From: Eledone cirrhosa
Lineage: Eukaryota
Direction of reading: 5' to 3'
Assembly: GCA_964016885.1 (NCBI GenBank)
Contig: OZ024748.1
Location: forward strand, 37,076,001-37,140,000
Length of the DNA stretch: 64,000 nt
The position numbers and the translations under genes are program-made. Numbering within the stretch: the first letter of the stretch is position 1; every line of letters starts with the position of its first letter. The notes below the pieces were generated by a model, which had not been told where the DNA came from, ran no database searches, and worked only from the letters and a program-made list of their open reading frames with translations. Shown piece by piece: positions 1,081 to 61,510 of this stretch.

Positions 1081-4000
1081 ATTAAATATCTTTAAGTCGT
1101 TTGGAAGCCTCGACAATGCAAATGGGTAAATCTCCGGGTAACAAGATCCGGTGGTGGAGAGAGAGATTTAAGTGGGTGTACGTTGAGATGCGTGGTGTGT
1201 AAAGATGTGTAAATGTGTAGAAGAAAGAAGGGAAGAGTATAAAGGATAAACTAAAAATAACAACACAAGAGAGAGTTACCTTGGGAGAGATTTAATAGTC
1301 CCTATATATTTCGGATTCACATCCATCAACTGGGGTTTTTTTCCGGGGTAAAGGTTGTCTGTCGGACAGGTGCGAAACGCGTCCTCCGCTGTTTGTTGTT
1401 TTGAATATCCGGAAAAAACCCCAGTTGATGGATGTGAATCCGAAATATATAGGGACTATTAAATCTCTCCCAAGGTAACTCTTTCTTGTGTTGTTATTTT
1501 AATTTTATCCTTTATACTCTTCCCTTCTTTCTTCTACACATTTACACATCTTTACACACCACGCATCTCAACGTACACCCACTTACATCTCTCTCTCCAC
1601 CACCGGATCTTGTTACCCGGAGATTTACCCATTTGCATTGTTGAGGCTTCTAAACGACTTAAAGATATTTATTTATTATTCCACAATGCTTCAAGCAAAC
1701 TTGAATACTCTCTTATCCTTACACCTGAGCCAGGAATTGTTTTCATCCGTAAGGGAACTGTTTAGACTGTCGGAGAAATGGGCCAACGCTGGCTGTCAAA
1801 TTATTTTCCTGAAACGCTGCCTAAAAAACGATGTCATCCCCAACACCATCAGGAACATCCGCTTACCAGTAAGCCTACGTACACCAGCTTTCCAAAACAC
1901 CACTAACCGCATACATCGCACGTGTATTCAACAGATCCTGAGACATCTCAACCGCCAATTACACGTCCATAAGCGGACACTCTCAGAGCGGACACATCGA
2001 CTGCCAATAGCACCTGAAAATCACTAAAGCAATCGACCAGTGTTACCACTCCGGAGTCCAATACCAGAAAAAACGGCTCAAGCGAAAATATGAGTGGATC
2101 TTGTCGAAACGCCACAACGGGAACATCGAAACTAACGAACAGACGGACCAGAACCACGTGGGAAACAACAACTTAACAACCGCCACCGCCGCATCCACCA
2201 ACACCGAGCCATACCTCAACGATGCGACGCACCTGGTCACCGACCTAACCGGCATTCTCACGAGCGACGAGCTGAAACTCCTACACCTCGGACCCAAGTT
2301 CATCGTCTCACAACGTCTCGACGACAGACTCAAACTCAACATAGAGGGCAACTTTTGTCGAGCCGCTTACCAACTTAAATGGGTGACCGCCATCAACAGC
2401 GCCACAGAAAATTAACAGCGCCCACGCAACCCACCCCAAGTTCCCCACATACCACCCCGACAAGCCACTCCACCCCCCACCCACCAACCACGAACTCGAC
2501 ACTAAACTCATCAGGCTAAAACACTCCATCTCGGATATACTTCACAAACACACACGCACAACACATAACCTCACCAAATCTCAACTCACCACTCTCTCCA
2601 ACCTAAAAGTGAAGAACCTCATCTATCTCCCCTCCGACAAGGGAAAAGAATTCTGCGTCATCAGCAGAGAGGCCTACAACACCCTGGCCCTCCAACACCT
2701 TGACGATGACAACCTCTACTCCAAGGTCACGGGAATCACTCCCGCGCAGATAGAAGAGCACATCAACGCCGCCTGGACCAACATCTGCGACCGGCGGAAG
2801 CTCCCGAAGAAGCTGAGATACAACCTCCTCACGAGGAACAGCAGACTACCCGCCTTCTACCACCTCGTGAAAACACACAAACAGGGACCCGACCTGAAGA
2901 TCAGACCCATCGTATCGAGCGTGGGGGGACCACTCTACAAAATTTCATGGCTCCTAGCCAGAATACTCAAACCCATCTTAGACACCTTGCCGCGACACGT
3001 TAACAGCTCCGAGGAGGTGTTGAAGTGCCTGCATCAAATGGATCCCGACACCAGAAGGAATAACAGATATGCCTTCAGCCTTGATGTAGTCGCTCTCTAC
3101 ACCTCGGTCCCGGCACTCCCGGACGTCAATATACTGATGGAACGCGTCCAATCCACCGACCTACACTGCTTCGGGCTCACCACCACTGACATCCACCAAC
3201 TCCTATCCATCGTCGTCGACAACACCTACTTCGGATTCCTTGACCAAACATACCAACAAACCTCGGGATTGCCCATGGGATAAAGCCTATCAGGTGTGCT
3301 AGCGATCTCTTACATGGACAACCTCGAACGCAAGGCACTCAACGCCTGCCACCCCAACGCCGTAGCCTTTTTCTCAAGGTACGTGGACGATATCCTCATC
3401 CTCACATCTTCCCAAGACACGGCGAACATAATCTATGAGACGTTCAACAACACGGACGAGAACATTGACTTCAGTGTTGAACACCCCAACGAAAACGGGT
3501 CACTTGTCTTCCTTGACTTCCGAATCAACATCACGGAACAGGGAAGGATCCACTGCAACTTCTACCGAAAGAAGCCTGCAGGGACCTGTTCTTCACTACA
3601 AGTCCGCCCTCCCTAACAGTGCCAAAAGAGGATACATCACGAACGAGATCGCGCGAATCAAAAACAGATGCAGTGATCCTGCGAGTGGTGTCACTCATAC
3701 CAAGCGATTCCTCGAGGTGCTGGAGACGAACGGGTACCCTACCTCGATCACAGAGAGAATAGGAGACACCAGACACAAGAGACAGAGAGGCACCCAAGGC
3801 AAGTGCTTCCTTAAAATGCCACACCTGGGCGAGAATACCACCAACGCTATCCGCAAGGCTATACGGGAGGAGGGCCTCGACATCCACCTGGCCCACTCGG
3901 GCCCCTCCCTGCGAAGATGCCTCTCCAAGAAACCCGGGAAATCTACTGACGCATACTCTCCCAGAGACTGCCCGATACGCCATGCCAACTGTTGCCTACG

Positions 4001-4926
4001 CACATACGTCGTGTATAAGATAGAATGTGACAGGTGCAACCAATACTACATAGGTAGCACAATCCGACATTTGCACATCCGGATCAAGGAACACACTAAA
4101 ACCAGGGCTTCGTCTTTCCGGAAACACATAGACAAATGCGGAAACAAAGACGGAATGCCCATTGTCACAATTCTAGCGACTGAAAGAAACGTCGGCACGT
4201 TACGTATAAAGGAAGCACTTTTTATCAAACGCCTGCAACCGCAAATAAACAACCGATTAGAGAGAAGCGAAATGAGATGGCTGGTTTAAGTTAACAAACG
4301 ATGTAGCAACACACGCACACACAAACGAGACAACTACACACACACACACACAGTAGCATTCCACCATACGAACATACTACACTGCCAATACAGAGGAACA
4401 AGGCAACAACACACGCACGCACACACACAGTAACATTTAACAAACAGGCAGAGAATGGACTGACAGCTAGCGCCACCCCACTCCCTCATTCGGCCGCTGA
4501 TCTCTGCCCGACCGACCCCATTTCACGCGCACGCGCGCTCTGCCGAATACCTCAGATATTCAAAACAACAAACAGCGGAGGACGCGTTTCGCACCTGTCC
4601 GACAGACAACCTTTACCCCGGAAAAAAAACCCAGTTGATGGATGTGAATCCGAAATATATAGGGACTATTAAATCTCTCCCAAGGTAACTCTCTCTTGTG
4701 TTGTTATTTTTATTTTATCCTTTATACTCTTCCCTTCTTTCTTCTACACATTTACACATCTTTACACACCACGCATCTCAACGTACACCCACTTACATCT
4801 CTCTCTCCACCACTGGATCTTGTTACCCGGAGATTTACCCATTTGCATTGTCGAGGCTTCCAAACGACTTAAAGATATTTATTTATTATTCCACAATGCT
4901 TCAAGCAAACTTCAATACTCTCTTAT
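1081..4926 (+). mobile_element. Penelope-like element (EN+, Nematis/Poseidon-like) with a 5' inverted pLTR and a 3' direct pLTR
   Basis: 1081-1410 is the reverse complement of 4556-4885, and 1408-1716 is directly repeated at 4617-4926. Flanked by (TA)n. Encodes RT plus GIY-YIG. Confidence 0.93.
1686..4289 (+). pseudogene. Disrupted PLE RT/GIY-YIG endonuclease ORF
   Basis: Motifs SDKGK, KIRPIVS, SLDVVALYTSVP, QTSGLPMG, RYVDDI, FLDF and VVYKIECDRCNQYYIGSTIRHLHIRIKEH. Stops at 2413 and 3281 plus frameshifts. Confidence 0.92.
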
Positions 4927-5046
4927 ATATATATATATATATATATATATATATATATATATATATATATATATATATATATATATATATATATATATAT
5001 ATATATATATATATATATATATATATATGGTATTAGTATTTGCGCT

Positions 5047-5278
5047 CTGAAATAGCGATGTATACATGAATGTATGTATAGTATATGTGGCAATATACCG
5101 TATGTTTAATTAAAAACATTTAGAAGACCATTCGCTATTAGTTTTAAAGTAGTGACTATGTGACTTACTTATTTTCTAAAACTAATAGCGAAAGGTCTTC
5201 TAAATGTTTTAAATTAAACATACGGTATATTGCCAAATATACTATACATACATACATGTATACATCGCTATTTCAGAA
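5047..5278. repeat. Fold-back element (~100-bp arms) between TA tracts; relatives at 61518-61860 and 62043-62140
   Basis: 5047-5147 is approximately the reverse complement of 5177-5278. Confidence 0.75.
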
Positions 5279-60503: not shown

Positions 60504-60560
60504 ATTATATATATTTCGAGTGTACTGTGCTGTTTTTTCATTACGTGCTCGTCAGATAAA
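60504..60560 (-). ncRNA. HHR-like motif of the Hydra-pLTR type
   Basis: TTAT|CTGACGA|GCACGTA..TACACTC|GAAA|TATAT|ATAA. Confidence 0.45.
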
Positions 60561-60836
60561 ATACATAAATTGATGTATGACATACCTCAACGGTCTTGAA
60601 AGTTCAATTCCAGTATTGGCAGTGATTTATTACGACAAATCTCAACATTTATATACCACAAATAATAATTGTACATATATATATATCAACCACCAGTGAA
60701 GTCATGCTTTTTTTCTGTCTGTGTGTGTGAGAAAAGAGAAGAATAACTTCACTGGTGGTTTAGATGTTTCAATAAGAAATATTTTTGTTATATTATATAT
60801 ATATATATATATATATATATATATATATGTATATAT

Positions 60837-61510
60837 AAGTATGTATACGTACATACATATATGTATACAAACGTACAGTAGTATGTATATATATACATAC
60901 ATGCACACATATATATATGTACGTGTGGATTTACCGAACATCTATTATAATGCTCTGTGTGTTTGTAAACAAACAAACATCCCGAATTAAGCCGTACAGT
61001 GTTTAGCAACTATCGTTGCTCTTTTGTTCAACACTGACAAAGGAACGATGTACTAGTTTCAAACTTATTAGCTATCGTCAGCACCGTATACCTTCCTGCC
61101 AGATGATTGAACGTCACTCGATATGCAAATTAGGCTGCTCAGCCGTTAATATGCATAAGGAAAGTATATACTTTCAAACGTTCAATCATCTGGCAGGAAG
61201 GTATACAGTGCTGACGATAGCTAATAAGCTTGAAACTAGTACATCTTTCCTTTGTCAGTGTTGAACAAAAGGGCAACGATGGTTGCTAAACACTGTACGG
61301 CTTAATTCGGGATGTTTGTTTGTTTACAAACAAACCGAGCATTATAATAGATGTTCGGTAAATCCATACGTACATATATATATGTGTGCATGTATGTATA
61401 TATATACATACTACTGTACGTCTGAATACATATATGTATGTGCGTATACATACTTATATTTAAGTAACAGCTGTACTAAGAGTGAGAAATGAAATTTCGT
61501 TTCATTTTTT
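60837..61510. mobile_element. Fold-back copy of HHR family C
   Basis: Arms at about 60837-61113 and 61179-61455, with a CTGACGA core in both. Confidence 0.8.

Follow-up and report, generated by a model that had tools for sequence, protein, structure and literature searches.

How an insertion comes to consist of two copies of one mobile element, joined at their 5′ ends and with both 3′ ends pointing outwards, is the question raised by a 64,000-nucleotide (nt) stretch of Eledone cirrhosa DNA (assembly GCA_964016885.1, contig OZ024748.1, positions 37,076,001 to 37,140,000 of the forward strand), here called the window. Dinucleotide microsatellite makes up about one quarter of the window; the assembly has a size of 3.0 Gb. 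In a preliminary description, made from the letters of the window, eleven such fold-back insertions with a hammerhead ribozyme motif were listed (at positions 1081, 5761, 6373, 18105, 18674, 20209, 21631, 42092, 53601, 57051, and 60837) and ascribed to twin priming, that is, to two reverse-transcription events primed from both strands of a cut in self-complementary (TA)n. The fold-backs are insertions of endonuclease-bearing Penelope-like elements (PLEs) and of their non-coding derivatives; this architecture is already known, and the families are new members of a known Penelope-like kind. While the layout itself is ordinary, the origin of the inverted repeats of PLEs and of their one-sided tail is called unresolved in PMC8557442, and the rule described here, by which one arm of a pair ends in a tail and the other at a short site, makes this open mechanistic question directly testable.

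Pairing of One Tailed and One Short End

Searches of the genome with its own element families (designated by letters) yielded 404 loci (designated by L numbers), which are the best-scoring matches of each search and not a random sample. Every family has two kinds of end, a distal one with a tail and, 36–131 nt upstream of it, a proximal short one, each fixed within a few nt. Adjacent opposite-strand pairs of eight families included 130 head-to-head rows, among which three spurious microsatellite pairs and one duplicate were excluded before counting. The 128 real head-to-head loci comprised 117 pairs of a tailed with a short end, one pair of two short ends (18674 in the window), and 10 unclassified pairs, so that 117/118 resolved pairs are mixed. 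The queries for families B (first search), G, and C included the tail, and pairs of two short ends could be missed with them; with the tail-free queries of families A, H, K, D, and E mixed pairs were found in 71/72 cases. A ninth family follows the rule in 7/7 pairs.

Unpaired copies from four tail-free sets ended 20 times at the short and 17 times at the tailed site, and since they use both ends about equally, a free choice of ends would make only about half of the pairs mixed. Two loci with an apparent tail on both arms proved to be tandems, in which internal pseudo-long terminal repeats (pLTRs) had been taken for outer ends and the true outer ends are short. For one such locus and for one unresolved tandem the outer end was predicted before the sequence was retrieved, and both were short as predicted (2/2). 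From the near-strict pairing, set against the free use of ends by unpaired copies, it is predicted for the existing in vitro system that reverse transcription on the two strands of a target begins at different sites; should this hold, PLE integration is two-ended, unlike the target-primed insertion of long interspersed nuclear elements (LINEs).

Head-to-head joins between families were seen as well. At 59308–59704 a short-ended G-like arm (minus strand) is joined to a tailed K-like arm (plus strand) with about 7 nt common at the join, which could have arisen from two RNAs in one event, by deletion between neighbouring copies, or by serial insertion, and L401 holds a similar cross-family join.

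Polarity of the Arms

All eleven listed pairs were recovered at their positions by self-comparison of the window, and mapping to the family references confirmed their single polarity, with the sense of the left arm on the minus strand and that of the right arm on the plus strand in 11/11 cases. Seven further same-family fold-backs, absent from the list, have the same polarity (18/18 in the window). The sense is fixed independently by a linked PLE open reading frame (ORF) with reverse transcriptase (RT) and GIY-YIG parts at seven of the eleven loci (1081, 6373, 20209, 42092, 21631, 53601, and 57051, the last by eye), and at the remaining four by the hammerhead boxes together with fixed outer and variable inner ends. 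No contiguous ORF was found for orienting the copies of family E.

The genome-wide tally of polarity for which the preliminary description had called did not give a 50:50 distribution. In the eight families the 130 head-to-head rows stood beside 23 tail-to-tail ones; 21 of the latter were a broken middle piece or a one-sided microsatellite match, and two had (TA)n between real 3′ ends, while a tail-to-tail pair detected de novo at L213 was an error of the centre boundary. The 3′-part references of 12 families were also applied to 390 loci and to the window. Of 158 pairs of same-family neighbours 149 were head-to-head, 2 tail-to-tail, and 7 tandem, and cross-family neighbours were 2 head-to-head, 13 tail-to-tail, and 5 tandem. 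As an arbitrary control 60 segments of 10 kb (600 kb in all, 15 segments near the window) were used, which contained 115 inverted repeats, 19 of them with a hammerhead. Where the hammerhead lay inside an arm, 13 of 14 pairs were head-to-head, the exception being a tail-to-tail pair with (TA)n between two separate insertions; in five pairs it lay in the spacer and was uninformative for polarity. This share in arbitrary segments indicates that the polarity is not due to chance. Such abundance (13 hammerhead-bearing fold-backs in 600 kb) also means that repeat annotation could mistake these structures for miniature inverted-repeat transposable elements (MITEs) or microRNA hairpins.

Polarity alone, however, is no proof of twin priming, because the layout has been published and is expected from priming at target 3′ ends, where each 3′ end of the element is attached to one end of the target. 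Head-to-head copies are the “most frequently observed” form in PLEs according to PMC3846280, and an inverted 5′-truncated copy at the 5′ end, with the tail often at one end only, is described in PMC8557442.

Arm Lengths and the Number of Template RNAs

Statistics of the 5′ ends were based on 111 simple pairs, the reference locus of family E and three tandem cases being left out. Extension towards the 5′ side is greater for the tailed arm in 45 pairs and for the short arm in 54 (p = 0.42), 12 pairs being equal within 3 nt; in family A, the youngest, the offsets range from −4060 to +4419 nt. Since either arm can extend further 5′, neither simply duplicates the other. These data bear directly on a single priming event, after which a tailed cDNA folds back or, as proposed in PMC3846280, an antisense transcript self-primes, with later uneven deletion of the centre. 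A copy cannot hold sequence absent from the tailed arm, barring such a deletion, and snap-back, which would leave one arm wholly within the other, is therefore disfavoured: the short arm is ahead by over 30 nt in 40/111 pairs and the tailed arm in 29/111. Besides being a published proposal, self-priming agrees with the near-symmetric centres (42/111 within 30 nt) and with the common private variants of family A arms. Palindrome centres are unstable. Against self-priming stand the equal frequency with which either arm is longer, near-symmetric cases included, and the kilobase asymmetries already present in the youngest family. Furthermore, a copied-back strand has no reason to end within a few nt of the site used by unpaired copies, and some tail-only arms, as at 39838–40303, have no sequence in common with the partner. 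Thus single priming is regarded as improbable. A MITE-like palindrome moving as a unit was also considered and rejected, since the centre junctions differ among the palindromes of family E and in all other families; junctions that vary between loci mean that the palindromes are made at each site.

In the families A to K (L001–L330) a 5′ hot spot, at which many arms stop, lies about 60–400 nt upstream of the short end and is likely a transcription start within the pLTR; in family A the arm ends form a second cluster near the end of the ORF.

The inner ends of the two arms coincide more often than expected. They lie within 15 nt of each other in 30/111 pairs, compared with 19.1 after permutation within families (p = 0.0002), and in 7/37 pairs of families A and B, compared with 1.1 (p = 0.0002). 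The arm duplication has a median of 191 nt, being above 100 nt in 81/111 pairs (a share inflated by query design) and at most 25 nt in 8/111, and the overlap exceeds 1 kb in 10/111. In family A the arms of a locus differ by 0.06%, loci differ by 0.37%, and lineage markers are common to both arms in 7/7 cases; outside family A the markers were uninformative owing to homopolymer noise and age.

For both arms one common RNA is favoured. The chief alternative is dual priming, proposed for L1 in PMC2837659, in which two RNAs would be held in a protein dimer, the same two sites would be used, and the geometry of the protein would set one site per strand. Such an arrangement would explain kilobase overlaps without strand displacement and the unequal inner ends of most pairs, and the two cross-family head-to-head joins and L401 could be two-RNA events. 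The coincidence of inner ends above permutation, including a deep one in L046 (1988/1988), speaks against it, as does the absence of mixed-lineage pairs in family A (0/7 informative, a weak test), and the cross-family joins are rare (2/151) and also explicable by serial insertions or deletions. Dual priming on two RNAs is considered rather unlikely, albeit less so than self-priming.

Proposed Mechanism

Two-sided priming in some form is highly probable, and it is singled out by the rule of one tailed and one short end, together with the failure of either arm to be contained in the other. The fixed position of both ends and their pairing were observed, while their role as start sites is suggested by analogy with PMC11167929, in which both target strands were cut and extended in vitro by a PLE protein that uses two internal start sites, one at each border of the tail, and for which a dimer is predicted. 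In the preferred form, to which about an even chance is given, both cut strands would be primed, one at each fixed start site, on one RNA, and the cDNA tips would be end-joined. Both strands of the target, which is AT-rich and in this genome mostly (TA)n, would be cut by the GIY-YIG domain, as was found in vitro for another PLE (PMC11167929). One 3′-OH would start cDNA at the distal site and give the tailed end, and the other would start at the proximal site 36–131 nt upstream and give the short end. Both polymerases would then head for the 5′ end of the RNA and halt at different or equal points. Mutual exclusion of the sites would most likely come about because both read one RNA, the rear polymerase displacing the front cDNA. 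The free cDNA tips would probably be end-joined, often with 2–4 nt of microhomology, and then prime each other's second strand, and priming of a single strand would lead to ordinary 5′-truncated solo copies.

A more specific version is programmed double priming, in which a dimer would give the cut strands to two mutually exclusive sites on one RNA, copied twice for up to kilobases; its chance is put at somewhat below even. If it is true, the inverted pLTR, the one-sided tail, solo palindromes, and tail-only inversions are one reaction halted at different points in several PLE families.

According to a suggestion in PMC8557442, both strands could instead be primed at the tail end, with later trimming of one product to the short site by the endonuclease. 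This would leave each pair with exactly one tail, and PLE endonucleases do cut AT-rich sites at their own pLTR junction (PMC11167929). Nevertheless, the short ends directly adjoin target (TA)n and are present in 20 unpaired copies, and the start sites found in vitro match both borders of the tail (PMC11167929), which leaves little probability for trimming.

Several points weigh against double priming on one RNA as formulated above. In PMC11167929 both strands used both start sites in vitro, and linkage within a molecule was not measured. Locus 18674 breaks the tail rule, and the loci counted are non-random, best-scoring ones. A later asymmetric loss of the palindrome centre could also lengthen either arm. 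Much of the centre symmetry falls at the 5′ hot spot of each family, which two RNAs would share, and two RNAs of the same source locus fit the data equally. Arm lengths are significantly correlated in family B (rho 0.68, p = 0.002) but in none of the families A (0.20), G, H, and K (−0.14), and tailed arms do not clearly accumulate at the short site, as 7/111 stop within 25 nt of it, which does not exceed the number in the next 50 nt. Finally, 38/64 junctions contain 1–85 unmatched nt, which reflect partly insertions and partly mismatch to the reference.

Of the twin-priming proposal in the preliminary description, two reverse-transcription events primed from both sides thus remain as the best reading, while the argument from polarity alone, full agreement with L1 twin priming, and a strict need for (TA)n are not supported.

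Junctions and Target Sites

Unmatched bases are absent from 14/19 joins in family A, of which 5 are blunt, 8 show 2 nt of microhomology, and one shows 3 nt. In families A, B, G, and H 26/64 joins are clean, 18 of these 26 showing at least 2 nt of microhomology, compared with about 16% for random blunt joins. The end sites mostly show a short TA-like match by eye, and (TA)n supplies an identical primer on both strands. It is not strictly required, since two family B loci (L081 and L090) with the same architecture have non-microsatellite flanks on both sides. Among 233 classed ends 194 adjoin microsatellite, where target-site duplications are unreadable.

In two family A loci (L048 and L051) a mixed CA/TA microsatellite of about 2.5 kb lies between the ORF and the pLTR and is carried into new insertions; therefore the element spreads microsatellite and its own targets.

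Arm Divergence and the Question of Artefact

The arms range from identical to clearly diverged, as had been described, with 2.6, 11.9, 5.1, 2.9, 9.0, and 1.0% at 1081, 5761, 6373, 18105, 18674, and 20209 and 1.7, 0.0, 6.9, 3.1, and 3.9% at 21631, 42092, 53601, 57051, and 60837, respectively. Divergence within and between loci is 0.06 and 0.37% in family A, 2.0 and 2.5% in B, 2.7 and 3.6% in H, 3.3 and 4.3% in G, and 7.4 and 10.7% in K. Since the former tracks the latter, the arms have aged independently without strong homogenisation, and the fold-backs are real insertions of differing age, which upholds the earlier view.

These values also bear on the possibility of a read fold-back or assembly artefact or, alternatively, of two independent insertions into one (TA)n. 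The near identity of family A arms would suit an artefact. However, arm divergence follows family age, most arms contain sequence absent from the partner, and independent neighbours mostly face each other tail to tail across (TA)n. In addition, a 75-nt short-read contig (depth about 7) crosses the centre of 21631 without a difference, a weak support as one side is covered by 26 nt (less than 31 nt) and the reads possibly come from the same individual. The short-read contigs contained at most 0.37 of the sequence words, and none covered the whole locus. Explanations of this kind are considered very unlikely. The earlier argument that polarity and divergence speak against read fold-back holds for divergence, taken with the unequal ends, and not for polarity alone.

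Identity of the Elements and Their Hammerhead Motifs

The main body of PLE1 (family B; 1410..4924, plus strand) contains a broken RT/GIY-YIG ORF with a Pfam GIY-YIG match above the cut-off (PF01541, E 1.4e-5) and RT motifs present by pattern. The ORF is followed by a downstream pLTR and a 38-nt tail ending at 4924, and the 5′-truncated upstream pLTR at 1410-1714 repeats 4618-4924; the inverted arm occupies 1078..1409 (minus strand), with its short end at 1078-1081 and its 5′ end at the family 5′ hot spot. Thus the elements show pLTRs in partial tandem, also seen as tandem units in L051, L052, L335, and L342, as well as a 5′-truncated copy inverted at the 5′ end, the tail being confined to one end. 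A 758-aa protein of family A has RT motifs followed by YIG-T, its Pfam GIY-YIG match (E 0.089) being below the cut-off. No Pfam RT match was obtained for any protein searched, the PDB search was likewise without a match, and an 82-nt query had no match in the genome search. A CxC...C...C linker ahead of GIY-YIG in families H and PLE3, compared by eye with PMC8557442, suggests the Neptune type.

According to the preliminary description the hammerhead motif lies on the minus strand in the left arm and on the plus strand in the right arm at all eleven loci. The strands are correct (CTGANGA on the opposite strand in 0/22 arms), whereas both boxes (CTGANGA...GAAA) are present in both arms at only 5/11 loci, namely 18105, 20209, 42092, 53601, and 60837. 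At 6373 both boxes are in the left arm only, at 21631 CTGANGA is in the right arm only, with a long stem II, at 18674 the first box only is found, and 1081, 5761, and 57051 are without CTGANGA, the last having the U3-A8 core, a variant of the minimal hammerhead described in PMC4209133. Thus canonical boxes occur in both arms at five loci and in one arm at two, and four loci are variant or degenerate. The folding energy gave a z below −2 in 1/9 folds, which does not single out most of the hammerheads. In an Rfam scan of the window no hammerhead was among the best 150 of 504 matches, which were microRNA-type hairpins and microsatellite noise.

A tandem repeat of about 315 nt, retrozyme-like and with a type I hammerhead (seen in L396), is found at 61515-61860 and in L391–L402; it has at least 1,547 candidates in the genome and obeys the end-pairing rule.

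Relation to Known Systems

The closest likeness is to Pen2a_Av of Adineta vaga (PMC3846280) and the PLE scheme of PMC8557442, where an inverted 5′-truncated copy, head-to-head order, partial tandems, a preference for (TA)n, and a tail on one inverted pLTR are described alike. In contrast to those accounts, the pairing of ends is here counted and near-strict (117/118), either arm may be longer, the tails are 28–131 nt long compared with 30–40 nt, and self-priming is disfavoured by the present data. In Poseidon of Anolis carolinensis (PAc; PMC11167929) both strands of an AT-rich target are likewise cut and extended, two internal start sites bound the tail, and a dimer is predicted, while the parts of that paper considered here make no connection between these sites and the two arms of an inverted insertion and contain no test of site exclusion per event.

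L1 twin or dual priming (PMC2837659, 10.1101/2024.08.27.596794) also has both target ends priming, cDNA tips joined by microcomplementarity, and the same polarity. For L1 a chance internal match provides the second site, which here is fixed within a few nt per family; duplication accompanies 17% of L1 inversions with a median of 22 bp (10.1101/2024.08.27.596794), compared with the median of 191 nt here. L1-type twin priming proper was therefore rejected, two of its defining features, a variable second site and little or no arm overlap, being absent.

The minimal hammerheads of PLEs and non-LTR retrozymes (PMC4209133, 10.64898/2026.07.22.740005) are similar in being of type I, with a tiny palindromic helix III and a U3-A8 variant. 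In Schistosoma hammerhead motif pairs 100–700 bp apart on opposite strands are reported in the same two sources, which in the parts considered do not analyse the polarity and end pairing followed here. In the literature covered by title and abstract, subscription papers and supplements being outside this scope, none counts end pairing or applies double priming to the inverted repeats of PLEs, and a paper on octopus repeats mentions neither palindromes nor hammerheads.

Other Features of the Window

Downstream of PLE1 a family I fold-back (5030..5277), absent from the earlier list, consists of the approximately 315-nt tandem hammerhead repeat, its left arm being tailed with the sense on the minus strand. 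It is followed by a family C fold-back with a degenerate hammerhead core (5755..6127; short arm 5755-5897 on the minus and tailed arm 5898-6127 on the plus strand) and by PLE2, listed as 6373, whose main body at 6286..9770 has its ORF on the minus strand and its tailed end at about 6290, with a short-ended inverted arm on the plus strand at 9770..9985. Long ACC/AAC-rich tandem arrays at 10620-16360 contain low-complexity open frames of more than 1,000 codons.

The family D fold-back (18105..18595) has a short arm at 18105-18242 (minus), a tailed arm at 18243-18595 (plus), and canonical hammerheads at 18204 (minus) and 18409 (plus). Next to it lies the family E fold-back (18674..18826), the sole exception to the tail rule, with both ends at the short site. 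In the family A fold-back at 20207..21337 the short-ended arm (20207 to about 20870, minus) is longer towards the 5′ side than the tailed arm (20890-21337, plus), and in the family H fold-back listed as 21631 (21513..21997) a tailed arm at 21513-21808 (minus) meets a short arm at 21811-21997 (plus). A weak inverted repeat without hammerhead at 22422-23065 has 75% identity over 180 nt.

Several structures had not been listed before. A family F tandem on the minus strand (23448..25355) is interrupted at about 23620–24160 and has an inverted 3′ piece at 25250-25355 (plus); the family F fold-back beside it (25360..25975) has a left arm (minus) longer towards the 5′ side and a short-ended right arm at 25702-25975 (plus). 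PLE3 (26220..30086) combines a tail-only inverted arm at 26220-26279 (minus) with a partial tandem (plus) that reaches the short site at about 30076. At 26287-35352 two PLE3 copies, 98.8% identical, lie tail to tail over microsatellite and a LINE-like fragment (about 30600–31200). A further pair of the PLE3 family (39838..40303) is formed by a short-ended arm at 39838-40240 (minus) and a tail-only arm at 40250-40303 (plus); since these arms do not overlap and have no common sequence, no palindrome is visible, and such inverted arms escape palindrome searches. Around about 1 kb of mostly (TA)n an inverted duplicate with 84% identity (40460-40723 and 41737-41976) is a G-like/H-like composite.

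The family A fold-back at 42022..42870 has identical arms over 386 nt (tailed arm 42022-42483, minus; short arm 42484-42870, plus). Also new are a family K pair at 49413..49821, whose left arm (minus) enters microsatellite and whose right arm at 49654-49821 (plus) is tailed, and a partial tandem on the minus strand at 52386..53155 with a hammerhead at 52635, a short end, and an inverted arm at 53085-53155 (plus) with a tail of about 30 nt. In the listed family K fold-back (53598..54167) the tailed arm is at 53598-53906 (minus) and the short arm at 53907-54167 (plus), in the family G fold-back with the U3-A8 variant (57051..57482) the short arm is at 57051-57231 (minus) and the tailed arm at 57237-57482 (plus), and in the last family F fold-back (60836..61510) the short arm is at 60836-61114 (minus) and the tailed arm at 61115-61510 (plus). 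Several of the loci are asymmetric rather than true fold-backs, the offset of the centre ranging from 0 nt to kilobases and one outer end being longer in each.

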